In this document: piece by piece, positions 17,840 through 51,333 of the stretch
Layout of the letters: each line of letters opens with the position of its first letter
Numbering within the stretch: the first letter of the stretch is position 1
Source of the DNA: an uncultured Acidobacteriota bacterium
Lineage (GTDB): Bacteria > Acidobacteriota > UBA6911
Length of the DNA stretch: 64,000 bases
Assembly: GCA_963827655.1 (NCBI GenBank)
Contig: CAWHCF010000044.1
Location: forward strand, 71,242 to 135,241
Direction of reading: 5' to 3'
The notes under the pieces: model-generated
Databases searched by the model: none
What the model saw: only the letters and a program-made list of their open reading frames with translations
Told to the model about the DNA's origin: nothing
Position numbers and translations under genes: made by a program

Positions 17840-18258
17840 TCGCTTCGTCAGCCCCGCCGTCTCTGTACCACACAATTCAGTTCGATGAAATCCCCGCCTG
17901 CGATTTCTGGCTCTCTCGCTTAGTATTTCGGGACTTCGTTTCCAACCCTGGGCTCCGCGTAACTGACTGAAGATAAAATGATGTAACTCGACGGGCTGGT
18001 ACTTTCCAATTGACTTTCAGATGCCCGCGGGAGCATGATCGAGCCGTATTCTGGGGGGTCAAGAACCTCGGCAGGAACCGAAGCAAATCATTAGGACGAG
18101 ACGGTGATATCGAAGTACGCAGGCTGCAACTAAGGCCCACGTAATTTTGCGGCTGAGCAATCTCGCGTTGAGCTCGGATTCTTGAGATTCAAATGAGCGC
18201 CGAGCAGGCATAGCTGGGGAGCGACTGCCGGAACGGCCTTAGTTTTCAGGTACAGGCA

Positions 18259-18789
18259 ATGAGCCCGTCAAGCCATGGCTTCCTGGTGATGGACGCCTCG
18301 CTCAAGCTGATTTATGCCAATGCTGAAGCCATCCATATCTTGGTCTACCCGGAAAATCCTCAAAAGGTAAAGTCGCTAGACAGCCTTCTCGCCGAGAAGA
18401 TCCGAACAGTCCTCCTCAAGCAACCGTCGTCACCGAAGGCCGGCTTCGTCGCCGAGCTCAGGTCGGGAAGGAGGCGCTACCTGTGTCGCGCATTTTCTCT
18501 TAATCCTTACTCGAAGAATCCTGGTGGCCAGGAAAGTCTGGCCATTCAGTTCGAACGAACCCGTCAAGTGACCTTGAACGGTTCCCAGATTGCCGAGAGA
18601 TTCAACTTGACCCCGCGGGAACAACAGACGCTCGAATACCTGATCCAGGGGCTGACCAGTAAGGAAATTGCAGACCGAATGCATATCAGCGTCAATACAG
18701 TGAAAGCCTTTCTCAGGCTGATCATGGTGAAAATGGGGGTCACGACCCGATCGGGAATCGTTGGCATGCTGTTCGAGGTCAGACCATAG
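18259..18789 (+). CDS. LuxR/GerE-family transcriptional regulator with an uncharacterised N-terminal domain (EpsA-like polysaccharide-locus regulator)
   Basis: C-terminal HTH LTPREQQTLEYLIQGLTSKEIADRMHISVNTVKAFLRLIMVKMGV. The N-terminal 110 aa carry no recognisable receiver or PAS signature. It sits divergently from the HAD gene, at the head of the polysaccharide locus. Confidence 0.8.
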   Translation: MSPSSHGFLVMDASLKLIYANAEAIHILVYPENPQKVKSLDSLLAEKIRTVLLKQPSSPKAGFVAELRSGRRRYLCRAFSLNPYSKNPGGQESLAIQFERTRQVTLNGSQIAERFNLTPREQQTLEYLIQGLTSKEIADRMHISVNTVKAFLRLIMVKMGVTTRSGIVGMLFEVRP

Positions 18790-18879
18790 GGCGGCCGTCT
18801 CGGTTCTCTGGAAGCATGGGTCTGTAGTCAGTTCGAACTAATTCCTTTGGAGAATAGCATTCAAGCATAAAGGGGATTA

Positions 18880-19206
18880 TTGTCGCGGCCGATGAAGCCC
18901 CAGCAAGATCCGGACAGGCGCCAACACGCCCGGTACCCTCTAACGCGAGACCTGAAGATCCAGGTACTTCCTTTGCTCCGCTCCTCGAGTAAAAAGCGAG
19001 TGGAGATTCAGGGCCGGGTTCAAAACATTGGCGCCGGGGGCTTATGCCTTACCACCAGCCAGCCTCTTGAGGTCTACCGTCCCGTTTTGTGCGACATCCC
19101 TCTTTCTGCGGTCCCCGTCAAAATCCCGATCCTTATGCAGGTCCGCTGGGCTGTGAAGAGCTCAACCGGTGATCGTTTCAGAGTCGGCCTCCAGTTCCTT
19201 CTTTGA
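18880..19206 (+). CDS. Stand-alone PilZ-domain protein (putative c-di-GMP receptor)
   Basis: RxxxR motif (RRQHARYPL) and a D/NxSxxG-like motif (VQNIGAGGLCL) at PilZ-typical spacing. TTG start at 18880 (alternative ATG at 18892); AAAGGGG SD upstream. Confidence 0.65.
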   Translation: MSRPMKPQQDPDRRQHARYPLTRDLKIQVLPLLRSSSKKRVEIQGRVQNIGAGGLCLTTSQPLEVYRPVLCDIPLSAVPVKIPILMQVRWAVKSSTGDRFRVGLQFLL

Positions 19207-19860
19207 TCACGTTGGCGCTATAGAACAGGTGTCTGTTATGAAAGGGTTGATTCAGCGGGTGCGCAGCCGGAGAGAGTATCTAACCCGAATGGACTAACCC
19301 GCCAGGCTAATTCCTCCGGAGAGTTGAAATGTTCGGGGATGTGTCCGACTATAACGCAATACGCTTGATGATTAGTCGAGCACGACCCCGCTCAACAACG
19401 CCGTGAGGAAGGGGCATGAGGGTGCGAGACGCTGGAATTATTTAGACGATGGTTTTTGCATCAGGGAACTTGATTTATTCACTTGACGACGTAAGGGCAA
19501 GGTTGTTGTAATAAAGCACCCTCTCATCGCGCTGCCCTTGGGCAGCCTAATGCCCTGAATAAACCTGCTGGAGTTTTTCGCTCCGATCGTGCGGCTTTGA
19601 GGCCCGCCGTTTCGCATACCTAAAGGCACCATGTACGAGATCATTTTCTCCAGATCTACGCGCGGCTCCTGTTCGTACTGGTCCGGTAGGGGCCAAGAAA
19701 ACCATCGAGACGAGACCTGGGGGCTACAAGCGCGATCTGAAGCTCGGCCCAAAGAATTGACCGATGGTGAAACGTCCGGCATGGCACCTGGCACAATGAA
19801 CACAGAACCAGTAGCCGGCGGTTTGCGGTGGGATAGATCTCGGACTCTGGCGTTTTTTTT

Positions 19861-19878
19861 GCTTCCATCGATGGTAGC
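19861..19878. repeat. Palindromic element copy 1: GCTTCCATCGATGGTAGC (perfect 10-bp palindrome CCATCGATGG), preceded by a T8 run
   Basis: Seen directly. A near-identical copy lies 90 bp downstream. Candidate dimeric-regulator operator. Confidence 0.45.
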
Positions 19879-19950
19879 CCGTGCAAGAAAAAAGAAAATT
19901 GCAACTCGCGGAACGTTGGTGAATCAGCTTTACGGACTTTGAAGTTTTTC

Positions 19951-19970
19951 GTTTCCATCGTTGGTGATGC
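19951..19970. repeat. Palindromic element copy 2: GTTTCCATCGTTGGTGATGC (CCATCGTTGG), preceded by a T5 run
   Basis: Direct repeat of the 19861-19878 element (TTCCATCG[A/T]TGGT[A/G] shared), same orientation, 90-bp spacing. Confidence 0.45.
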
Positions 19971-20204
19971 GCAGTAAAAGGAACTTGAAACCATTGGTGT
20001 GTTATTGAATCAAGTTCCTCGATTCTCACTCGCTTCTGGTGTTTATTGGTTGGGTAAGAGGAATCCGGCCGCAGGGCGGATTTTCTCAGCCGACCGGGGC
20101 GAAAAGAGCTAAGATAGGGGATGGCGCGATGCCACACTTCATGTGGCTACTGGTAAAAGCGGAGCGCTGTCACCAAGATATCGAGTCTGCCTATGGGACT
20201 CAAA

Positions 20205-20217
20205 GGGCGGTAGTGCC
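20205..20217 (+). promoter_or_regulatory. ops-like element GGGCGGTAGTGCC (E. coli ops consensus GGCGGTAGCGTG), about 90 nt upstream of the RfaH/UpxY-like gene
   Basis: GGCGGTAG core at 20206-20213 on the coding (non-template) strand of the leader. 9/12 match to the RfaH recruitment site. Could be chance in a GC-rich genome. Confidence 0.3.
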
Positions 20218-20301
20218 TACTCCGGAACGGCAGTCGAGTTTGGTCCTTAGGTCGGAAAACAAAGAAAGGGCGGGGTTTTGCGTCCTTATGAAGGGGTTGC
20301 A

Positions 20302-20904
20302 ATGAACGCGCTCGTAAGCGGTTCCTGGTACGCCTTGCGAATCAAATCGCGTCACGAAAGGATCGTGGCCGCGGCCCTGAACGGCAAGGGATACGAGGTA
20401 TTTTTACCGCTTTATCGAGACCGGCGCCGCTGGTCCGACCGCATGAAAGAGGTCGAACTCCCCCTGTTCCCGGGTTATTTGTTCTGCCGGTTTGATGCGA
20501 TGAAGCGCCTCCCCATTCTCATGACCCCGGGAATTGTTCAGCTCGTCGGAGTGGGGAAAAGCCCGCATCCAATTGAAGAGACAGAAATTACTGCCATCCA
20601 GTCCATCGTGATTTCGAGGCTCAACGCGCAGCCCTGGCCCTATTTACAGGTCGGGCAAAAAGTCCGCATTGAGCAGGGACCACTTACCGGCCTGGAGGGA
20701 ATCCTAATTGCTTTGAAAAAAACGCATCGCCTTGTCGTCTCGGTTACGCTTCTCCAGCGTTCCGTTGCGGTGGAGGTGGATCATGATTGGGCGAGCCCAG
20801 TTTTGCCTGACCAGCCAGGGCGGGGAAAGGTTGCAGCTTCGGCTGCGACACATGTCGCCACCAGTAACGCGGTGTGGGCTTCGCCTGAGACAATGATACG
20901 GTAG
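20302..20904 (+). CDS. NusG-paralog specialised antiterminator (RfaH/UpxY/LoaP family), first gene of the polysaccharide operon
   Basis: NGN domain WYALRIKSRHERIVAAALNGKGYEVFLPLY ... ELPLFPGYLFCRFD (compare RfaH PLFPNYLFVEFD). KOW domain QVGQKVRIEQGPLTGLEGILIAL. AAGGGG SD 6 nt before the ATG at 20302. The track start 20278 is probably too early. Confidence 0.8.
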   Translation: MNALVSGSWYALRIKSRHERIVAAALNGKGYEVFLPLYRDRRRWSDRMKEVELPLFPGYLFCRFDAMKRLPILMTPGIVQLVGVGKSPHPIEETEITAIQSIVISRLNAQPWPYLQVGQKVRIEQGPLTGLEGILIALKKTHRLVVSVTLLQRSVAVEVDHDWASPVLPDQPGRGKVAASAATHVATSNAVWASPETMIR

Positions 20905-20948
20905 GCAAGTGCCTGCCACTTTTTACCTGGTACTTTTGAGGAAGAGTT

Positions 20949-21998
20949 ATGAGGATCGCGAAGTTGAGTAGCCTGCTGGTTTTTGTGCCCCTACTGGGCC
21001 TTACCCTGGGCTTAGCCTTTCAGCAAAGGGTTTCCGAGATCAAGCCTGAGCCCCAGCAACCGGTACCCCAGCAAGCGGTAACCGAGACCAAGCCTGAGAA
21101 CGCGCCTGCGGCGATGAAAGTCGAGAATCGCAAGTACATCCTGGGACCCGACGACGACATCACTATCCAGGCGTTAGATGCTGATGAGATTTCCAACAAG
21201 CCCGTCCGCATCGACACCAGCGGAAATATCAATCTACCGCTGGTAGGGCGACTGCGCGCGGCCGGTCTCACGGTCGAGCAGCTCGAAGCTGAGATTGCGG
21301 CACGTCTCCGCACCTATATCCAGCAGCCGCATGTGGCGATCAGCGTCACCAACTTTCGCAGCCAGCCCGTGTCGGTGCTCGGAGCGGTGCGCAGCCCTGG
21401 AATTCACCAGCTCCAGGGACGAAAGACCTTGTTCGAGATTCTTTCCATGGCCGGGGGTCTTGCGTCGGAAGCGGGACACAGTGTAAAGATCACCCGCCAG
21501 ATGGAGTGGGGACCCATTCCCCTCCCCTCCGCCACAACGGATCCTACAGGGAAGTTCAGCATCGCTGAAGTCAAGCTGAGGGCGATTCTGGAAGCCAGGA
21601 ATCCTGAAGAGAATATCCTGATCCAGCCTCACGATATTATTTCGGTCCCGCGCGCCGAACTGGTCTACGTGGTCGGGCAGGTTCGCAGACCCGGTGGGTT
21701 TGTCCTGAACGACCGTCAGAGCATTTCAATCCTCCAAGCTCTGGCGATGGCCGACGGGTTGACCAATATTTCGTCTGCAAAGAATGCCAGGATCATTCGC
21801 TCCACTGTCGGCGAGAATCGCGTCGAGATTCCGGTCAACCTGAAGTCGATTTTCGAGGGCAAATCGTCGGACGTTGCTCTGAAGGCGGATGATATTCTCT
21901 TCATTCCCACCAACGTGGCAAAGGGAGTATTCTTCAGCACCATTCAGACGGCAATTTCGGCTGCCACGTCCGCAGTCATCTACGGCGGTATGTACTGA
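20949..21998 (+). CDS. wza: Polysaccharide export outer-membrane protein, Wza/EpsA family (Poly_export + SLBB domains)
   Basis: Signal peptide; Poly_export block YILGPDDDITIQALDADEISNKPVRIDTSGNINLPLVGRLRAAGLTVEQLEAEIAARL; two SLBB-like repeats (VSVLGAVRSPG / VYVVGQVRRPG). Confidence 0.9.
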   Translation: MRIAKLSSLLVFVPLLGLTLGLAFQQRVSEIKPEPQQPVPQQAVTETKPENAPAAMKVENRKYILGPDDDITIQALDADEISNKPVRIDTSGNINLPLVGRLRAAGLTVEQLEAEIAARLRTYIQQPHVAISVTNFRSQPVSVLGAVRSPGIHQLQGRKTLFEILSMAGGLASEAGHSVKITRQMEWGPIPLPSATTDPTGKFSIAEVKLRAILEARNPEENILIQPHDIISVPRAELVYVVGQVRRPGGFVLNDRQSISILQALAMADGLTNISSAKNARIIRSTVGENRVEIPVNLKSIFEGKSSDVALKADDILFIPTNVAKGVFFSTIQTAISAATSAVIYGGMY

Positions 21999-26420: not shown

Positions 26421-26987
26421 ATGTTTTCACTCATCCTTCCTCCCGCGCGACGTTATTCCATTCTGATCGGTTTCTGGCTCGCTCTCAGTCTTTTCGCTGG
26501 AATAACCCTCGGTGCTATTCTGTCGCTGTGGGTATCCCCGACGCTGATGACTCTCGGTCTGATTGCGGTTCCGGTCCTGGCTCTACCCGGACTGCTGTGG
26601 CCGCAGGTGGCGATTCTACCTTACGTGGTCTGGAATAAACTGGCGAGGGAGTTCGGGCGCTATTCGCGCGCGTGGTTGATGGCCATCTGCTTCTATGTGA
26701 TTGTGGTGGCTGTAGGGCGAAGCGGAGCGTCACTCCAGCTTGCCCGTCCTGATTCAGGCCAATCGCTGTGGGTTCGCCGGCAAGATCCCTCTGGAGCCCG
26801 CAACGGCTTCGAACGGGTCGTCGCCGCGGATGAATCTTCCAAGAGCTGGATTCGCAACTTCCTCAAGTGGAGTGCGCGATCGAGCAATCTTTGGGCCTGC
26901 GGCGTGCTGCCGTTCTTAGTCCTGATCTCGGCTCTCGACCCCGAACAGGACAACACCGTCCCCAAAGATATCTACACGCTATTCTAA
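26421..26987 (+). CDS. Hypothetical membrane protein (3-4 TM helices)
   Basis: Hydrophobic segments ILIGFWLALSLFAGITLGAILSLWV / LGLIAVPVLALPGLLW / AWLMAICFYVIVVAV / LWACGVLPFLVLISAL. No recognisable domain. Tightly packed between the carbamoyltransferase and SGNH genes. Confidence 0.5.
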   Translation: MFSLILPPARRYSILIGFWLALSLFAGITLGAILSLWVSPTLMTLGLIAVPVLALPGLLWPQVAILPYVVWNKLAREFGRYSRAWLMAICFYVIVVAVGRSGASLQLARPDSGQSLWVRRQDPSGARNGFERVVAADESSKSWIRNFLKWSARSSNLWACGVLPFLVLISALDPEQDNTVPKDIYTLF

Positions 26988-26995
26988 GGTTTTCA

Positions 26996-28117
26996 GTGAC
27001 TTCCATTCGCTCAGTTCTGGCCCTGATCGCCTCCCTGGCCGGTTTGCTTCTGGCGGCTCCAATTGTCGTGCTTGGTCTCCCCTTCTGGGCGGTAGCCTGG
27101 CTGACCAAGCGAATCACCGGATTGCTGGAACCGGAGATCGTGCTCTGGGACCAGCTCATAAGATTCGACCCGACCTTCGGCTGGAAGCCGAAGGCGAACC
27201 TGAATACTCACTGCGTTTCAGAGTTGGGAGGCGAGGTCTTTCACGTAACGACCGATTCTGAGGGATGGCCGGGAGCGTCCACGATCGACGAGAGCTCAAT
27301 CACGGTCTTCGGCGACTCCTTCGCTTTCGGTTACGGAGTGAACGCTGAGGCCTTGTTTTCCGAGGTCAATCCTAAACTCCGCGTCAAAGCCATCGGAGCT
27401 CCCGGCTACAACATGGTTCAGGAAGTGATGTGGATGGATCGATTGTCGTCCCATCTCAGAGGGAAGCTCGTCGTTTGGTTTATTTATGTTGGCAACGATC
27501 TGTACGAGAACCTGCAGCCAAACATGCAGGATTACCGAACGCCTTTTGTGCGCCGTGCCGGTTCGACCGGTGAGTGGCAGATCGTCACCAGCCATCTCAG
27601 CTCGTCGAGGTGGTGGCCGTATCACGTGAATGACAAGTTGAGGTCCGCTCAGAGATTCGCCGCAATCTTCGGGACATCCTTCTTGTCAGAGCGGGTCTAT
27701 TCGGCCTGCGAGTTTCTGATCAGAAAAGGAAACAATATCTGTGCGCACGCCGGCGCCTCGCTGGCAGTCACTACAATACCCATCATAGATCAACTGAGCT
27801 TGAATGGCTGGAAACAGCGAATATCTGAGCTGGGATATCCGGAATCTCTCGACCTCAACCAGCCGGACCGTAAAATCGCCGAAATCTGCTCGACGTTGGG
27901 AGTCCGCTTCGTCGCAGGAAAGGACCACCTCAATGCCCGGCATTTCATTCCGGCAGACGGTCATTGGAATGAAAAGGGGCATCAAAGAATAGCGGATCTG
28001 CTGGCCGAGCTTCATCAACAGCGGCACCCGGCGGCCCGGAACGATACTGATCCGGAACTGCGTCTCTCACACGCGCAAAAACGCCCGACGGGCACGTTTC
28101 AGTGGCGCACCGATTGA
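26996..28117 (+). CDS. SGNH/GDSL-fold hydrolase or acyltransferase with N-terminal membrane anchor (paralog 1)
   Basis: Block I VFGDSFAFGYGV (GDS nucleophile), block V DGHWNEKGH (DxxH). GTG start at 26996 chosen because the track ORF overlaps the previous gene with no internal ATG. N-terminal hydrophobic anchor LALIASLAGLLLAAPIVVLGLPFW. Confidence 0.7.
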   Translation: MTSIRSVLALIASLAGLLLAAPIVVLGLPFWAVAWLTKRITGLLEPEIVLWDQLIRFDPTFGWKPKANLNTHCVSELGGEVFHVTTDSEGWPGASTIDESSITVFGDSFAFGYGVNAEALFSEVNPKLRVKAIGAPGYNMVQEVMWMDRLSSHLRGKLVVWFIYVGNDLYENLQPNMQDYRTPFVRRAGSTGEWQIVTSHLSSSRWWPYHVNDKLRSAQRFAAIFGTSFLSERVYSACEFLIRKGNNICAHAGASLAVTTIPIIDQLSLNGWKQRISELGYPESLDLNQPDRKIAEICSTLGVRFVAGKDHLNARHFIPADGHWNEKGHQRIADLLAELHQQRHPAARNDTDPELRLSHAQKRPTGTFQWRTD

Positions 28118-35424: not shown

Positions 35425-35842
35425 AATCGCTGAACCGCTTTACCTCTATCGCATCCAGCCGAATTCGATGTGCCGAAGCACAGACTTTCGGCGCCAGGGA
35501 CTTCGAGCGCGCGCCAAGTATGCCCCTGAAACCGTCGATCCTTCGGCACAAGCCAGGGACGAAGTCAGCGCCTGGGCTTTTATTCTAGGGCTGGAGCTCT
35601 TGGCCCGGAATGGACCGGGTGTCCGCCAGGCGGCGGACTACCTCGAAGCAAACAGGAACAAAGGCGAATTGGGCCAGATGGCTGAGCTACTTCCCGACGG
35701 CTGGGCTATCAATACTACAGATTGTGGGACTGCTCCGGGTTCCGGTACCGGCACAGGCCCGATTGGGAAACTCTTTTCAAGCCTCTTATGGAACCGGAGC
35801 CGCGCGAAATCCCCGGACGTACGCTCGTTGAAACTTGTTAGT

Positions 35843-36928
35843 ATGAAAAGTGCTTCGGGCGAAATCTCCTCATTCGTCGGATCAAAAGTGAACACCAATA
35901 GCAATCAACCCATAGAGAACCAGGACACTTCGTGCCTGATCGTCGCAGAGGTGGCTCAGGCACACGACGGCAGCCTCGGCATGGCCCACGCCTATATAGA
36001 TGCGGCAGCAAACGCCGGAGCCGACGCAATCAAGTTCCAGACCCATATCGCCGCGGCGGAATCGACTCCAGGAGAGCCGTGGCGCGTAAAGTTCAGCCCG
36101 CAGGACGCGACCCGCTACGACTACTGGAAGCGAATGCAGTTTACCGAAGACCAGTGGCGAGGTCTCAAGCGCCACGCTTCGGAGCGCGGCTTGAAGTTTC
36201 TCAGCTCCCCTTTTTCTCTCGAGGCTGTACAGCTCCTCAATCGTGTAGGAGTCACAGCCTGGAAGGTGGCTTCCGGCGAGGTTAACAACACCTCGATGTT
36301 GCAGTGTATGGCTGCCACGGGTCTGCCCATACTTCTGTCGACCGGGATGAGTCCTCTGCCCGAAATCGATTTCGCTGTAGATCGAGTGAAGCAATATGGC
36401 CTGCCCCTTACGCTGCTGCAGTGCACCACGGCCTACCCCTGTCCGCCGGAAAAGGTCGGGCTGAACCTGATACCGTTTTTCCGGGCGCGTTATGGCTGCC
36501 AGGTCGGCCTGTCGGATCACTCGGGAACCATCTACGCCGGTCTTGCGGGCGCCGTTCTTGGGATCGCTGTTCTGGAAGTGCACGTCACTCTCAGCCGGGA
36601 GATGTTCGGACCCGACGTTCCGGCCTCGATTACGACCACCGAGCTGCGCCAACTGGTCGCCGGCATCCGCTTCATAGAGAAGATGATGGCGAATCCGGTC
36701 GACAAGGATGCCATGGCAGTGGAGATGGCGCCTTTGCGGAACCTCTTTACCAAGAGCATTGTTCTCTCATCGGACTTGCCTGCGGGCACCGTGCTGCGAA
36801 AAGAACACTTGACCATCAAGAAGCCAGGAACCGGCATTCCCGCCGACAGGCTACCCGAACTCGTAAGCCGCACGCTAAAACGAGCGGTAACCGCTAACAG
36901 CTTGCTTTCGGAAGACGACCTTGCCTAA
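35843..36928 (+). CDS. neuB: NeuB/PseI/LegI-family nonulosonic (sialic-type) acid synthase with C-terminal SAF domain
   Basis: CLIVAEVAQAHDGSLGMAHAYIDAAANAGADAIKFQTH (NeuB N-terminal signature), then LSDHSG, and a SAF domain (VLSSDLPAGTVLRKEHLTIKKPG). The track ORF starts at 35468; its first 125 codons are GT2 run-on and linker, so Met at 35843 is used. Confidence 0.8.
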   Translation: MKSASGEISSFVGSKVNTNSNQPIENQDTSCLIVAEVAQAHDGSLGMAHAYIDAAANAGADAIKFQTHIAAAESTPGEPWRVKFSPQDATRYDYWKRMQFTEDQWRGLKRHASERGLKFLSSPFSLEAVQLLNRVGVTAWKVASGEVNNTSMLQCMAATGLPILLSTGMSPLPEIDFAVDRVKQYGLPLTLLQCTTAYPCPPEKVGLNLIPFFRARYGCQVGLSDHSGTIYAGLAGAVLGIAVLEVHVTLSREMFGPDVPASITTTELRQLVAGIRFIEKMMANPVDKDAMAVEMAPLRNLFTKSIVLSSDLPAGTVLRKEHLTIKKPGTGIPADRLPELVSRTLKRAVTANSLLSEDDLA

Positions 36929-38180
36929 TTCGCTACGCCGTAAAATATGTGTTGTTCTGGTTGACCGGGCTAACTATGGCCGCCTGAAGCCGGTCATGAA
37001 GGCTATCGCAGACCGGCCAGAGCTTGAACTCCAGGTTCTTGCCGCCGGAACGATGGTCCTGGAACGCTTTCAGCAGCCTGTGCACGTTGTGAAACAGGAC
37101 GGCTTCTCTGTGGACGGCGAGATCTACATTGAACTGGAAGGCTCCACCCCGGCCACCATGGCAAAATCCGTCGGTTTCGGCGTCGTGGAGTTCGCAAGCG
37201 AGTTCCAGCGGCTCAAACCGGATCTGGTGCTGGTCATCGGCGATCGATACGAGGCGCTGGCGGCCGCTATCGCTGCTGCGTATATGAACATCTGTATCGC
37301 CCACATACAGGGTGGCGAGGTTTCCGGATCGATTGACGAAAGCGCGCGCCATGCGATCACACGATTTGCGCATTTCCATTTTCCGAGCACGAGGCGTTCC
37401 GCGGAGTATCTGGTTCGCATGGGAGAAAATCCGAAGACGATTCTCGCCCTAGGGTGCCCCAGCAGCGATATCGCTCGCGACCTCGATCGAACGCTTCCGC
37501 CCTCAGCGATCAATGCCCTGGGCAGCGGCGCGGCGATCGATCTCTCCGATGCGTTTCTCCTGGTGGTCTTTCATCCCACGACCACGGAATACGGAGGAGA
37601 GCGCCGGCAGATGGAGGAGGTTCTCGAGGCCCTCGATAACATCCAGCGTCAGACCGTTCTCCTCTGGCCGAACATTGATGCCGGAGCCGATCACATCAGC
37701 AAGGCGATTCGAACCTTTCGCGACCGGGTGAAACCAGCCTGGCTCCATGTCATAACGAACCTGAGCCCGGAGGATTATCTGAAGGTGCTGGCCCATGCCT
37801 CCTGCGCCGTCGGGAACTCCAGCAGCTTTGTGCGCGATGCCAGCTATTTCGGAACGCCGGTGGTTTTAGTGGGAAACCGGCAGGATGGACGCGAGACCGA
37901 CCAGCACGTCATGCCCGTGCCTCCTCTGGCCGCGGAGATCACTGCCGCAATACGCGAGCAACTTGCGCATGGACCCTATGCTCCCAGCAGCCTTTACGGA
38001 GATGGACATGTCTCCGAACGAATTGCCGAGGCGCTCAGCCGCCTCACTCCCTATGTTCAGAAGCGCCTGAGCTACATGGGGCAAGGTAAAGCCGAGTTTG
38101 TCGAGCGCGCTTCCCAAACCACGGATCTCAAATCGAGCGACGATCTTGCCTCAAGCTGGGCGCTGCATTCTTCGGATTAG
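36921..38180 (+). CDS. neuC: UDP-N-acetylglucosamine 2-epimerase (hydrolysing), NeuC family
   Basis: KICVVLVDRANYGRLKPVMKAI ... DLVLVIGDRYEALAAAIAAAYMNICIAHIQGGE ... HFHFPST, the NeuC/Epimerase_2 pattern. TTG start; overlaps the neuB stop by 8 nt. Confidence 0.8.
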   Translation: MPNSLRRKICVVLVDRANYGRLKPVMKAIADRPELELQVLAAGTMVLERFQQPVHVVKQDGFSVDGEIYIELEGSTPATMAKSVGFGVVEFASEFQRLKPDLVLVIGDRYEALAAAIAAAYMNICIAHIQGGEVSGSIDESARHAITRFAHFHFPSTRRSAEYLVRMGENPKTILALGCPSSDIARDLDRTLPPSAINALGSGAAIDLSDAFLLVVFHPTTTEYGGERRQMEEVLEALDNIQRQTVLLWPNIDAGADHISKAIRTFRDRVKPAWLHVITNLSPEDYLKVLAHASCAVGNSSSFVRDASYFGTPVVLVGNRQDGRETDQHVMPVPPLAAEITAAIREQLAHGPYAPSSLYGDGHVSERIAEALSRLTPYVQKRLSYMGQGKAEFVERASQTTDLKSSDDLASSWALHSSD

Positions 38181-38274
38181 CGGGATCGCGCCTTTGGAGT
38201 GCGCAAGCTTGCTTGCGCCTTGTGCAACGGCAGCTTGCTGCCGGTTGTAAGAAATGAATGGGATCAGCGCTCGA

Positions 38275-38982
38275 ATGAAGGTTCTGGCAATTGTACCTGC
38301 GCGCGGCGGATCGAAAGGGATTCCGCGCAAGAATATCGCGCCCCTCATGGGAAAGCCGCTCCTGGCCTATACGGCCGAAGCGGCCCGGGCCGCCGGGCGT
38401 TTGACCCGGGCGCTTCTCTCAACTGAGGACGAAGAGATCGCTCGCGTAGGACGACAGTATGGTCTGGACGTGCCGTTTCTGCGGCCGCCGGAACTGGCGC
38501 GCGACGATACTCCGACGATCCCCGTATTACAGGACGTGGTTCGGAAGCTTGAAGCCGTGGGGGATCGTTACGATGCAATCTTCGTGCTCCAGCCGACCAA
38601 CCCGCTCCGGCGAGCGCAAGACATCGACGGCGCCATTGAGCTCCTGGAACGCACAGGCGCAGATTCAGTGATCTCGTTCGTTGATGTAGGGGAAAAGCAT
38701 CCGGCCCGAATGAAGATCGTTACTGCCGAGGGCAGGGTCATGAATCCGTCTTTCGCCGAGCAATTCGAGGGTCAGCCCAGGCAGGCTCTCTCGAAGCTTT
38801 ATCTGCGCGAGGGCTCGATCTACCTTACCCGCAGGTCCGTACTCATGGATCAAAGCTCGATTCAGGGATGCGACTGCCGGGCCTGGCTCATCCCCGAGGA
38901 ACGAGCGTGCAACATTGATAACCCGTTTGACCTTTTTCTGGCTGAACAGATCATGAGGTACCATGCCGTCCAAGCGACCTAG
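38275..38982 (+). CDS. neuA: N-acylneuraminate (CMP-nonulosonate) cytidylyltransferase
   Basis: MKVLAIVPARGGSKGIPRKNI (CTP_transf_3 P-loop) and the conserved FVLQPTNPLR block. Start at 38275 preferred over 38254. Confidence 0.85.
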   Translation: MKVLAIVPARGGSKGIPRKNIAPLMGKPLLAYTAEAARAAGRLTRALLSTEDEEIARVGRQYGLDVPFLRPPELARDDTPTIPVLQDVVRKLEAVGDRYDAIFVLQPTNPLRRAQDIDGAIELLERTGADSVISFVDVGEKHPARMKIVTAEGRVMNPSFAEQFEGQPRQALSKLYLREGSIYLTRRSVLMDQSSIQGCDCRAWLIPEERACNIDNPFDLFLAEQIMRYHAVQAT

Positions 38983-39958
38983 AATCCTCGTCGCAGAATC
39001 GAGCGGATTCTGTCCGAGGGCGGCAGAACTGCTGCGCGAGGCCGGTGACCTGACCCTGGCCGACCTCGACCGCAACGGTCTCCTGGCGGCTGTCCGCGAC
39101 ATCGATATTCTGTGGGTCCGCCTTCGGCATCGGATCGACCGCCAGCTTCTCGACGCGGCGCCCGAGCTGAAGATTATTGCGACGCCCACAACCGGCCTCA
39201 ATCACATAGATCTGAACGAGAGCAGCGACCGCGGCATCCAGGTCCTGTCTCTTTCGGGAGAGACCGCCTTTTTGAACGACATCCGCGGCACTGCCGAGCA
39301 CACCCTTGCGTTGATGCTTGGCCTGATCCGTCACCTCCCGGCAGCCGCGACCCACGCCCGATTCGGCGGCTGGAATCGAGATCGGTTCAAGGGCCGCGAA
39401 TTGCATGGCAAGACAGTTGGAGTCGTCGGTTATGGCCGGCTCGGGCGTATCGTGAGCCGATACTTGAGAGCGTTTGATACGGTCGTCCTGACCGCGGACC
39501 CGGATATCACCCCGGCATCGGTCGAGCCGCCGGTCATGCTGGTTCCGCTCGCCCGATTGCTTGGCGAATCGAACCTGGTGACACTGCACGTGAACCTCTC
39601 GGAGAAGACACGCGGGTTCTTCGGGCGCGAGCAATTCTCGGCCATGAAAGAGGGCGCCTGGTTTATCAATACCTCCCGCGGAGAATTGGTCGATGAGACG
39701 GCGCTGCTCGATGCCCTGAAATCGGGGCATCTGGCCGGGGCCGCCCTGGATGTGATTTCCGGCGAGGGTTCGGAGCGGATGGAGAATCATCCAGTCGTGG
39801 CCTATGCCCTTGAACACGAGAACCTCATCCTGACGCCGCATATTGGCGGCTGCACCGAAGAGTCGATGGCGCAGACCGAAGTGTTCCTGGCAGAAAAAGT
39901 CCTGATGTTTTCAAAATCCTTCGCCTTTGCTTGGCGACTTCGACACGACGCCCCATAG
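38963..39958 (+). CDS. D-isomer-specific 2-hydroxyacid dehydrogenase family protein (NAD-binding)
   Basis: GKTVGVVGYGRLGRIVSRYL (Rossmann GxGxxG) and the catalytic-domain pattern ...NTSRGELVDETALLDAL ... AALDVI ... LTPHIGG. Overlaps the neuA stop. Confidence 0.8.
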   Translation: MPSKRPRILVAESSGFCPRAAELLREAGDLTLADLDRNGLLAAVRDIDILWVRLRHRIDRQLLDAAPELKIIATPTTGLNHIDLNESSDRGIQVLSLSGETAFLNDIRGTAEHTLALMLGLIRHLPAAATHARFGGWNRDRFKGRELHGKTVGVVGYGRLGRIVSRYLRAFDTVVLTADPDITPASVEPPVMLVPLARLLGESNLVTLHVNLSEKTRGFFGREQFSAMKEGAWFINTSRGELVDETALLDALKSGHLAGAALDVISGEGSERMENHPVVAYALEHENLILTPHIGGCTEESMAQTEVFLAEKVLMFSKSFAFAWRLRHDAP

Positions 39959-49130: not shown

Positions 49131-50034
49131 TGAAAGTCCAGGAAACCGAGCTGAGAGTGCCGGGGCTGGAAGCAGCTGCCGCCCGGCACGCAAGCCGGAC
49201 CCGATATTCCGCCCATCCGCATCGAAGCGCGCCAAGGTTGGGTATCGCTCAAGCTGCGTGAGGTCTGGGAGTATCGCGAGCTGTTGTTTTTCCTCACCTG
49301 GCGAAACATCCAGGTACGATACAAGCAAACGGCGCTGGGCGTGACCTGGGCCATCATCCAGCCTCTCTTCACGATGGCGGTGTTCAGCCTGTTTTTCGGC
49401 CGGCTGGCCAAGGTCCCGTCCGATGGCATTCCTTATCCGATCTTTGCCTTCGCCGCCCTGGTGCCGTGGACGTTCTTTTCCAACGGATTGAGCCAGTCCT
49501 CCAACAGCCTGGTGGGCAACTCCAATCTGATAAAGAAGGTGTACTTTCCTCGCCTCACTATCCCGGTATCCACGGTGCTCTCAGGGGTGGTGGATTTCAT
49601 GCTGGCATTCGTCATGGTGCTGGGGATGATGTTCTACTACCGCATCGTACCCACGGCCAATGTGCTCTGGATTCCACTGTTGCTGCTGCTCGCGCTGGTG
49701 ACCTCCCTCGGTGTCGGGCTATGGCTGTCGGCGCTGAACGTGCAGTACCGCGACGTCCAGCACGCCGTCCCCTTCCTGACCCAGTTCTGGATGTTCAGCA
49801 CGCCTATCGCTTACCCCAGCAGCCTGCTGTCCGAACCCTGGCGCACTATATACGCGACTGAATCCGATGGTCGGCGTGGTGGAAGGCTTCCGGTGGGCGC
49901 TCCTGGGAACCCAACCCGCTCCCGGAGCGATCCTTGTCGCCTCGTCCCTGGTGGCGGTGCTGGTCCTCGTCGGCGGCGCGTTTTATTTCCGCCGCATGGA
50001 AAAGACCTTTGCGGACGTTATTTGAGTCTTCGCG
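49131..50034 (+). pseudogene. wzm: ABC-2 type polysaccharide/O-antigen exporter permease Wzm, with apparent frameshifts at both ends
   Basis: Core ORF 49284..50069 has IRIEARQGWVSLKLREVWEYRELLFFLTWRNIQVRYKQTALGVTW (Wzm signature) and 6 TM. The true C-terminus LNPMVGVVEGFRWALLG...FADVI is in another frame (stop 50032-50034). A candidate ATG at 49131 (MKVQETELRVP) is also out of frame with the core. Confidence 0.65.
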
Positions 50035-50061
50035 CTCAACCATTTCAACGGATCAATAATC

Positions 50062-51333
50062 ATGAGTGATGCTGTTATTCGCATGGAAGGACTGGGAAAG
50101 GTCTTCCGCATCGGCGCCCGGCACGAAGGTTACAAGACGCTGCGCGACACGCTGTCCAATGCCTGCACTGCGCCTTTCCGCCGGATCCGCACGACGCTCC
50201 AGGGTTCGAGAATCAAGCCCTCCAGTGACGAAAACACGATCTGGGCCTTGAAAGACCTCTCGTGCGAGGTGAAGCGCGGGGAGGTGGTAGGAATCATCGG
50301 GCGCAATGGAGCGGGCAAGAGCACGTTGTTGAAAATCCTTTCTCGCATCACGGAGCCGACCGTCGGATTTGCCGAGATTCGCGGCCGAGTGAGGTCGCTG
50401 CTCGAGGTCGGCACCGGCTTTCACCAGGAGCTGACCGGCCGGGAAAACGTCTACCTCAATGGCGCGATCCTGGGCATGAAAAAGTCGGAGACCGACCGAA
50501 AATTCGACGAGATCGTGGCCTTCTCCGAGATAGAAAAGTTCATTGATACGCCCGTGAAGCATTACTCCAGCGGCATGTACCTGCGACTGGCTTTTGCCGT
50601 CGCCGCCCACCTGGAGCCGGAGATTCTGCTGGTGGACGAGGTCCTGGCCGTCGGCGATGCAGCGTTCCGGAACAAGTGCGTGGGGAAAATGGGAGAGGTG
50701 GCGCAGAAAGGGCGAACCGTGATCTTCGTGAGTCACAACATGGGGGTGATTCAGTCTCTTTGCAACACGGGAATCCTCCTGGAAGACGGTAAGATCACTT
50801 TTAAAGGACCGACCCAGCAGGCTGTAACGAAGTATCTCGGATCGGTCGAGCAACTGCGAACCAAGCCGATCGAGACGCGGCAAGATCGCATTGGCGGCAA
50901 TACCTTCAGGTTCAAACGCGTCCAGTTTCTCAATCCTGAAACCATGGCGCCCTGGAGGACCCTGGTCTCGGGTCAACGCGTGATTGTCCGGCTCGAATAT
51001 GAATGCTTATCCAGCCAGACCCTCGAAGATGTTGGGATCGGTATCGCATTTCATACCGCCAACAACATCCACCTCTTTGCCTGCAGGAACCGAGCCGTTG
51101 GAGTAACACTTAAGGTTCACCCGGGAGAGGGTTACACGGATTGCATCATTCCAAAGTGGCCGCTCAAAGCCGGGCGCTACTCCTACCATCTCTATGCCGA
51201 CCGAAGGGATACGCCGCTGGATTACGTCACCGACGCGGGTTCTCTGGATATAGAAGCCAACGACTACTATGGCACGGGGTATCTTCCGGCTCCGGGCCAA
51301 CCCGGAGTTCTGATCGACTATGCCTGGGAATAA
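50062..51333 (+). CDS. wzt: ABC transporter ATP-binding protein Wzt with C-terminal glycan-terminus-binding (Wzt_C) domain
   Basis: Walker A GRNGAGKST, signature YSSGMYLRLAFA, Walker B LLVDEVLAVGD, H-loop VSHNM. A 170-aa C-terminal beta-rich extension is typical of Wzt_C. Intact. Confidence 0.9.
   Translation: MSDAVIRMEGLGKVFRIGARHEGYKTLRDTLSNACTAPFRRIRTTLQGSRIKPSSDENTIWALKDLSCEVKRGEVVGIIGRNGAGKSTLLKILSRITEPTVGFAEIRGRVRSLLEVGTGFHQELTGRENVYLNGAILGMKKSETDRKFDEIVAFSEIEKFIDTPVKHYSSGMYLRLAFAVAAHLEPEILLVDEVLAVGDAAFRNKCVGKMGEVAQKGRTVIFVSHNMGVIQSLCNTGILLEDGKITFKGPTQQAVTKYLGSVEQLRTKPIETRQDRIGGNTFRFKRVQFLNPETMAPWRTLVSGQRVIVRLEYECLSSQTLEDVGIGIAFHTANNIHLFACRNRAVGVTLKVHPGEGYTDCIIPKWPLKAGRYSYHLYADRRDTPLDYVTDAGSLDIEANDYYGTGYLPAPGQPGVLIDYAWE

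Follow-up and report, generated by a model that had tools for sequence, protein, structure and literature searches.

The largest intergenic gap in a 64 kb stretch of DNA from an uncultured Acidobacteriota bacterium (the window) is probably where an exopolysaccharide operon has its promoter and its long 5′ leader, and would carry an ops-type (operon polarity suppressor) loading site for a NusG antiterminator encoded in cis. This reading is drawn from sequence comparison. The gap is a spacer of 1,095 bp at 19207-20301, flanked by a PilZ-domain gene (18880-19206) and by a gene with its ATG at 20302, and no gap in the window is longer in a greedy map of its open reading frames (ORFs). An earlier note on this DNA had drawn attention to a pair of palindromic repeats and to micro-ORFs within the spacer; it overlooked that the next gene encodes a NusG paralog, and that an ops-like element at 20194-20217 is the most conserved feature of the spacer. 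The largest gap of the window would thus gain a concrete control element at the head of a polysaccharide cluster of more than 40 kb, in a phylum that is abundant in soil and whose gene regulation has barely been studied.

The ops-like element and the NusG paralog

The extended element, TGGGACT-N5-GGCGGTAGTGCC, is located at 20194-20217 on the plus strand, 84 nt upstream of the start codon of the paralog. Its upstream half is the box TGGGACT (20194-20200), and its downstream half is an ops-like core on the non-template strand (20206-20217, GGCGGTAGTGCC) that equals the Escherichia coli ops12 sequence, GGCGGTAGCGTG (PMC5995543), at positions 1-8 and 10. When the non-template strand of the leader was tested against the 12 nt ops sequence GGCGGTAGnnTG, these same positions agreed in the window, and positions 1-9 and 11 agreed in the family. 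In E. coli, RfaH recruitment is lowered by the substitutions C3G and T6A and abolished by G4C, G5A, A7T and G8C (PMC5995543); all of the substitution-sensitive bases, C3-G8, are intact in the window.

The comparison drew on 108 related loci (620 kb) collected by genome and metagenome scans and by contig look-ups. A BLAST of the leader against the distant loci gave a match only around 20192-20213, reading TGGGACTCAAAGGGCGGTAGTGCC. The perfect arrangement TGGGACT-N5-GGCGGTAG occurs once in the window, at 20194-20213, and GGGACT-N5-GGCGGTAG occurs 63 times in the 108 loci, always on the coding strand and no more than 300 nt upstream of the paralog, with no instance elsewhere on either strand of the 620 kb. 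The core GGCGGTAG alone was found 74 times within the 300 nt upstream of the paralog, where the background density predicts about 0.3 occurrences, and 12 times elsewhere. At the sequence level, the extended element (20183-20217) is kept in 63-74 of 106 loci. In a logo of 58 non-redundant sequences, conservation is 93-100 % over TGGGACT (−12 to −6) and 84-100 % over ops positions 1-9 and 11, and the exact E. coli ops12 sequence GGCGGTAGCGTG is present in three loci (L015, L016 and L039). A second GGCGGTAGCCTG in the window, at 27088-27099 (+) inside the ORF 26867-28117, is not preceded by TGGGACT and has probably arisen by chance; no further copies of ops or of the NusG paralog were found in the window.

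The upstream half of the element is also part of a predicted hairpin, GAGTCT-N7-GGACTC (20183-20201, plus strand), in which the 3′ arm is the conserved GGGACTC and which is a candidate pause hairpin. A hairpin with GGGACTC as its 3′ arm is the minimum free energy fold of the 45 nt upstream in most of the 58 family members, and is likewise predicted in all six close sequences, with invariant stems and variable loops. Among loci with usable upstream sequence that do not contain GGCGGTAG, most keep a TGGGACT-like box and the GCG/AGC stem, and have GG, TT, AT, GC or a single A as the loop (loop-variant loci L010-13, L030, L041-48, L053, L064-66, L075, L077, L017-20, L069 and L080); the upstream box reads TGGGAGT in the TT group and GTGACC in the AT group, and a few of these loci show no ops-like element at all. 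As the stem is fixed whilst the loop varies between subfamilies, this is the pattern expected of a hairpin loop that determines specificity. The protein columns aligned with R23 and R73 of RfaH hold H or N and S in the TT-loop proteins, and G and P in related GT-loop proteins. The natural loop variants represent a ready series for specificity studies.

A separate observation was made in L005, L006, L011, L014, L044 and other loci, which share a near-invariant block, GGGAATTGTCCGC-N4-ATATTTAAGGTTAAGACCGGATTGTG, about 170-215 nt upstream of ops. This block is likely to be a promoter or regulator site of the L005-like subfamily, and a promoter-like block at that distance would place ops inside a leader of about 200 nt in this subfamily too.

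The gene at 20302-20904 (+), the first of the cluster, encodes a specialised NusG paralog (PF02357, E=4e-19) of the UpxY family. It passes the UpxY model NF033644 (112.2 bits, cutoff 100) and fails the LoaP hidden Markov model (HMM; 65 bits, cutoff 125). In an AlphaFold2 model made from 43 sequences, residues 120-166 form five beta strands (predicted local distance difference test score 71-86), and the C-terminal domain is predicted to be an all-beta KOW fold rather than an autoinhibitory alpha hairpin. The tip of the predicted beta2-beta3 hairpin carries the motif RRRWSDR (residues 41-47, 20422-20442). All 43 homologues share W44, S45, D46 and R47; among the fetched loci this constancy is in part a selection bias, because WSDRMKEV was a search pattern.

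Leader architecture and neighbouring genes

Five relatives have leaders that can be aligned with that of the window: L023, L024, L104, L103 and L025, whose paralogs show 95, 92, 88, 87 and 86 % amino acid identity, respectively, to that of the window. The closest genomic relatives are Acidobacteriota metagenome-assembled genomes of the Acidoferrales/Terriglobales type. The leaders of L106 and L107 have detectable similarity to that of the window at the ops element only. Conservation is highest in the last ~200 nt of the leader, and two further blocks, at 19762-19800 (GGTGAAACGTCCGGCATGGCACCTGGCACAATG) and 19897-19926 (TTGCAACTnGnGG...TGAATCA), are strongly kept.

A candidate sigma-70-type promoter is located at 19483-19512 (+), and consists of TTGACG, an 18 nt spacer and the extended −10 sequence TGtTGTAAT. 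In all five relatives that cover it, AAGGTTGTTGTAAT is invariant and TTGAC is retained. A consensus promoter and terminator scan of the gap called no promoter and found no plus-strand terminator inside it; the scan misses the candidate at 19483-19512 because of the G at position 2 of its −10 element. An RNA hairpin can be drawn from the very bases of the candidate promoter, and no intrinsic terminator was found 3′ of pilZ. Two other promoter readings, an extracytoplasmic function-type GGAACTT and a sigma-70-type TTGCAA/TTGAAA...TGAATCA, were rejected on misfits of spacing or −10 sequence; L104 does not have the intervening loop.

Several local hairpins are predicted on the plus strand. The most upstream is a conserved imperfect hairpin at 19374-19432, found by RNAalifold with five sequences, which coincides with a conservation peak upstream of the candidate promoter and overlaps the second micro-ORF; pair 122:168 is G-C in three sequences and A-U in two, and pair 140:147 is A-U in four and G-C in one. 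Just 3′ of the candidate start site, the small hairpin GCTGCC-CTTG-GGCAGC (19531-19546; folding z-score −1.5) reads GTCGCCC/GGGCGAC in L025, which amounts to two compensatory pairs when the alignment is read directly. The stem of the conserved hairpin AGGAACTTGA-N21-TCAAGTTCCT (19979-20019) is retained in all six sequences; L104 carries GGAACTTTA/TAAAGTTCC, a compensatory change from G-C to U-A, as well as an 18 nt deletion in the loop. Closer to the paralog, the hairpin GAGGAATCCGG...CGGATTTTCTC (20058-20087; folding z-score −2.2) changes from AATCCGG/..CGGATT in the window to AATCTGG/CCAGATT in L025, which is again compensatory. It is followed by a stem-loop at 20117-20174 (folding z-score −2.3), with the outer stem GGGGATGGCGC/GCGCTGTCACC around GCCACA-N5-TGTGGC; across the six sequences the inner loop varies and the stems do not. 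The last hairpin (20266-20287) lies just 5′ of the Shine-Dalgarno sequence GAAGGGG (20290-20296) and shows one compensatory pair in L103, from G-C to A-U. With five relatives, such covariation tests have low power. A long-range pairing between 19807-19816 and 20145-20154 was rejected: about 0.6 perfect 10 nt complements of this kind are expected by chance, and it is lost in L025.

The window has four copies of the motif GGAACTTGA, where 0.41 would be expected, and three of them are in the leader (19465-19473 (+), 19980-19988 (+) and 20010-20018 (−)). The outermost two of these three belong to a 23 nt inverted repeat at 19460-19482/20001-20023, 78 % complementary and with an 11 nt perfect core, which encloses 518 bp that include the candidate promoter; its upstream copy (19460-19482) is degenerate in L104 and L025. 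As regards promoter inversion, the five relatives are all collinear, and no recombinase was found among the window genes scanned with Pfam.

Upstream of the gap, the PilZ gene (plus strand; PF07238, E=1e-8) is preceded by a gene for a LuxR/GerE-family regulator (18259-18789 (+); PF00196 GerE, E=2e-16). L024, L025, L107 and the P0003 contig likewise have LuxR and PilZ genes upstream of the paralog. In the near clade the gene order LuxR-PilZ-gap-paralog-Wza is kept, and the gap measures 660-1,080 nt (660 nt in L107, 1,080 nt in the P0003 contig). This persistence of length and position beside LuxR-PilZ bears out the view of the earlier note that the gap is a regulatory leader. Among the loci of the wider family with at least 2.5 kb of upstream sequence, a LuxR gene is present in 5/61 and a PilZ gene in 2/61; the LuxR gene is a neighbour of the paralog in the near clade only. 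A side observation concerns L104 (2140-2172; 1283-1552), in which PilZ is absent, LuxR is truncated and the leader is kept, with a local duplication of GATTTTTCGGACTT (two copies) in the indel-prone part of the leader.

Downstream of the paralog, a nearly uninterrupted co-directional polysaccharide biosynthesis and export cluster with a few minus-strand ORFs extends over 20949-63126 (+), and is the presumed target of antitermination. The cluster of more than 40 kb encodes Wza, Wzc, a carbamoyltransferase, PGA_cap, FemAB, glycosyltransferases, NeuB, a 2-epimerase, a cytidylyltransferase and Wzm/Wzt, and the gene directly 3′ of the paralog is a Wza/EpsE-type exporter, not UpxZ. At 35468-39958 and 49284-51333 the cluster holds NeuB, the UDP-GlcNAc 2-epimerase and the cytidylyltransferase, a set typical of nonulosonic-acid synthesis, and a Wzm/Wzt ABC exporter besides Wza/Wzc, so that two export routes are encoded in one co-directional array.

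Alternative explanations

Judged by its sequence, the gap is a long non-coding regulatory leader, and neither a gene nor the remnant of one. A functionless, decayed gene could have left the ORFs of 103-137 amino acids that are present on both strands, and a 58 amino acid upstream ORF (20129-20305), the TGA of which overlaps the ATG of the paralog (ATGA), is called by gene callers in relatives. However, none of the six longest ORFs of the gap matched Pfam at E<=1. Mismatches between the leader and the five relatives are spread evenly over the coordinates modulo 3 (328/332/354, p=0.56), with codon periodicity in none of the 240 nt sub-windows, compared with 265/76/69 (p=5e-40) in the adjacent coding sequence. 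The majority of leader indels are not multiples of three, and conserved sequence is confined to short blocks. L024 and L103 keep the 58 amino acid ORF whole, and the other three relatives (L023, L104 and L025) have it broken; it was rejected, as was a 5-codon mini-ORF overlapping the start codon of the paralog, which is not conserved. We give the remnant almost no credence. The claim of the earlier note that these 1.1 kb hold no credible protein gene therefore stands, and the decayed gene that it had named as the refuting case is excluded. Its description of an unusually long, AT-shifted leader is also accurate, in that the GC content is 0.52 in the gap and 0.573 in the whole window (0.488 at 19800-20100), a genuine and modest shift. 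The two micro-ORFs preceded by Shine-Dalgarno sequences (19329-19406 and 19416-19445) exist as it had reported, but the suggestion that they encode leader peptides finds no support in relatives, where they lose the start or gain a stop. The start codon of the first is GTG in L024 and ATC in L025; in L025 a TGA interrupts the second at codon 4, yet its nucleotides are conserved, so that the constraint is not on the peptide.

The same note read its two repeats as paired operators for a dimeric regulator, possibly the adjacent LuxR protein with or without PilZ, and this proposal, together with that of the leader peptides, now appears quite unlikely. The repeats themselves are where the note had placed them. 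There are two same-orientation copies of TTCCATCG(A/T)TGGT 90 bp apart, which are the only exact matches in the window, and each follows a T-run. Copy 1, TTCCATCGATGGT (19863-19875), contains a perfect 10 bp palindrome, CCATCGATGG (19865-19874), and is preceded by T8 (19853-19860); copy 2, TTCCATCGTTGGT (19953-19965), is preceded by T5 (19945-19949). The top 21 nt direct match (18/21) was equalled in 0/200 dinucleotide shuffles, and the LuxR/PilZ synteny reaches through the near clade out to L107 (57 % and 45 % identity), both of which favour operators. Set against this, the two sites lie inside longer units, 19841-19926 and 19933-20012 (both plus strand), that align with each other (local alignment score 22.5; shuffle mean 8.5 and maximum 15.5, with 0/500 shuffles reaching the score). 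The sites are therefore equivalent positions of a diverged tandem duplication of ~90 nt, and since they are homologous within it, their likeness needs no selection. The alignment of orthologous spacers, a check that the note had itself proposed, showed the repeats to be poorly kept across the five relatives. L024 is without the window segments ~19699-19762 and ~19824-19887, the latter of which contains copy 1, so that the first half of the first unit is missing. The palindrome is exact in the window only (L023 CCATCGTTGA, L103 CCATCAATAG, L025 CCTCTATTGG) and is lost in L104 too; copy 2 is kept in L023, L024 and L103 and degenerate in L104 (TCTGTCATCGG) and L025 (TTTGTCATTGG); and the repeat as a repeat was undetected in L103 and L025. 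In addition, L104 retains its leader without PilZ and with a truncated LuxR. The region is probably a duplicated, indel-prone leader module of ~90 nt, not an operator pair, and the eye-catching palindromic repeat would then be a by-product of duplication and not the key element.

Two further alternatives concern the device itself. The gap might also hold a structured RNA of its own, for example a riboswitch, an attenuator or a small RNA that responds to a signal like cyclic di-GMP, and this RNA could be the main device, with ops in a secondary part. This would account for the compensatory changes in the hairpins at 19374-19432, 19531-19546, 19979-20019 and 20058-20087, for the adjacent PilZ gene and for the ~700 nt of leader 5′ of ops to which no role is assigned, yet it seems rather unlikely. 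The covariance scan that the earlier note had suggested, made with the Rfam 15 models over 18000-21500, gave 0 matches at E<=10, and ARAGORN detected neither a tRNA nor a tmRNA. RNAalifold on the whole leader returned a net covariation term of essentially zero, with local hairpins alone supported, and the T-runs are not preceded by a conserved terminator hairpin; an intrinsic terminator at that place was rejected because the window has a stem plus U8 and the relatives fold otherwise. In the other alternative, TGGGACT-N5-GGC is not transcribed as an ops element and instead serves the operon as a sigma-54 (−24/−12) promoter. Sigma-54 dependence is frequent among polysaccharide loci, the spacing of GG and GC in the logo, read directly, is as in TGGCAC-N5-TTGC, and in many relatives the motif lies merely ~15 nt before the Shine-Dalgarno sequence and ATG. 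The sigma-54 consensus TGGCAC-N5-TTGC(A/T) prefers T at −14 and A/T at −11, whereas the family has G at 98-100 % at both positions. A promoter of this type would also not explain why GGTAGC-T, at −10 to −4 on this reading, is conserved to the same degree; this stretch equals ops base for base. Variation restricted to the loop, with GCG/AGC stems fixed, points to a DNA hairpin and not to a −12 element; no gene for an enhancer-binding protein is adjacent, and the associated gene is invariably the NusG paralog. We consider a sigma-54 promoter very unlikely.

The ops reading also has evidence against it. Peptide patterns taken from the paralog of the window served to fetch the loci, so that one family was sampled. 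The paralog fails the RfaH models (TIGR01955, 86.8 against a cutoff of 144.5; NF006534, 54.9 against 124). K10, H20, R23 and R73 are the RfaH residues that contact ops DNA in E. coli, where T11 G12 set the pause (PMC5995543). A HMMER alignment to 2oug_A pairs these residues with K15, A25, G28 and P76, which means that three of the four contacting side chains (H20, R23 and R73) are absent and K10 alone is matched. In the window, C11 C12 replace the pause-inducing T11 G12, for which a shifted T9 G10 step, two bases earlier, could substitute. The family-wide energy signal of the hairpin upstream of ops is weak (mean z −0.55), and the sigma-54-like spacing and the essentially zero net covariation of the whole leader count here as well. 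Finally, the mechanism leaves the ~700 nt 5′ of ops, repeats included, unexplained.

Proposed mechanism and comparison with known systems

From the sequence we infer pausing, docking and antitermination, as well as the position of the promoter and the action of the hairpins as RNA, and propose the following model for ops-dependent control of the cluster. Transcription would start upstream, probably near 19520 from TTGACG-N18-TGTAAT, with read-through from luxR-pilZ also possible, and RNA polymerase would traverse a leader with several conserved hairpins before reaching the extended ops at 20183-20217, which comprises a hairpin-encoding segment ending in TGGGACT, five bases and GGCGGTAGTG. There the polymerase would pause, and the exposed non-template strand could form a small GCG..AG(C/T) hairpin, giving the NGN domain of the paralog two docking surfaces, this hairpin and the TGGGACT duplex immediately 5′ of it. 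The polymerase so modified would resist pausing and termination over the cluster of more than 40 kb. As the paralog is the first gene downstream of ops, the arrangement would constitute a positive feedback loop.

The exact E. coli ops core in front of cis-encoded UpxY-family paralogs that do not have the ops-reading residues of RfaH suggests that the non-template hairpin, as a signal, greatly predates the RfaH family and reaches well beyond it. About 95 % of RfaH proteins are found in Proteobacteria (PMC7593976), and Acidobacteria were unmentioned among the NusG-paralog papers surfaced by our literature searches. A bolder and tentative idea, which we think could be right but is more probably not, is that of a phylum-wide 'ops grammar' of acidobacterial polysaccharide loci bridging RfaH and UpxY, in which an invariant TGGGACT duplex and an RfaH-type non-template hairpin with a fixed GCG/AGC stem are combined with a two-base subfamily loop (GT, GG, TT, AT or GC) that chooses the cis-encoded paralog to be loaded. 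Under such a grammar the element would be read by NGN residues other than those of RfaH, and, if true, the ops hairpin would be an ancient means of recruitment that did not originate in Proteobacteria.

Amongst known systems, LoaP of Firmicutes (PMC7819879, PMC11685472) is likewise a NusG paralog whose gene lies at the operon that it controls, and it too works through the leader. Its proposed signal is an RNA hairpin in that leader, and intrinsic terminators are its proposed target; canonical terminators were not found in the leader of the window. Cis-encoded, apparently monomorphic RfaH-like proteins (PMC13015549) are also encoded beside their target with an ops-like site before their own gene, and plasmid PrfaH/ActX (PMC11880322) has an ops-like site 3′ of its own promoter. 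The available portions of these two reports predict an all-beta C-terminal domain, as here, and concern proteobacterial or plasmid RfaH-family proteins with other cargo, for example conjugation; they describe no TGGGACT element.

The RfaH/ops (JUMPstart) system of Enterobacteria (Zuber et al. 2018, PMC5995543) shares with the window the 8-9 nt core GGCGGTAG(C), its location on the non-template strand and its place in the leader of a polysaccharide operon. The differences lie chiefly in the protein: the paralog of the window is below the RfaH HMM cutoffs, does not conserve H20, R23 and R73, has a predicted beta-barrel C-terminal domain instead of an autoinhibitory alpha hairpin, and is encoded in cis at the head of the operon, whereas RfaH is the product of a monocistronic, trans-acting gene. 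The element differs too, in having an additional invariant TGGGACT 5 nt upstream. On its sequence, the paralog of the window is not an RfaH, and UpxY/opsX is the better match.

The window resembles the UpxY/opsX system of Bacteroides fragilis (Saba et al. 2024, PMC11685472) in that a polysaccharide operon opens with the paralog gene and the recruitment element, putative here, lies in the leader just 5′ of that gene; the paralog of the window also passes the UpxY HMM. Bacteroides UpxY proteins are recruited at an opsX of ~40 bp that combines a non-template hairpin with a GCG/AGC stem, upstream duplex DNA and a pause hairpin (PMC11685472), and the segment 20183-20217 has the same composite layout at the sequence level. 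The basic beta2-beta3 hairpin, RRRWSDR in the paralog of the window, is shared with the Bacteroides paralogs, and the predicted beta KOW C-terminal domain is a further likeness. Here, however, the phylum is Acidobacteriota, the UpxZ gene is absent with Wza directly 3′, and evidence for an invertible promoter is lacking in the collinear relatives and among the Pfam-scanned window genes, which include no recombinase, although the inverted repeat at 19460-19482/20001-20023 around the candidate promoter recalls the invertible capsule promoters of Bacteroides. The TGGGACT half is near-invariant throughout the family instead of differing from locus to locus, the core is that of E. coli ops, and the leader is far longer (~0.8 kb if the candidate promoter is right). 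Overall, the element and its paralog resemble the known UpxY/opsX- and RfaH/ops-type systems.

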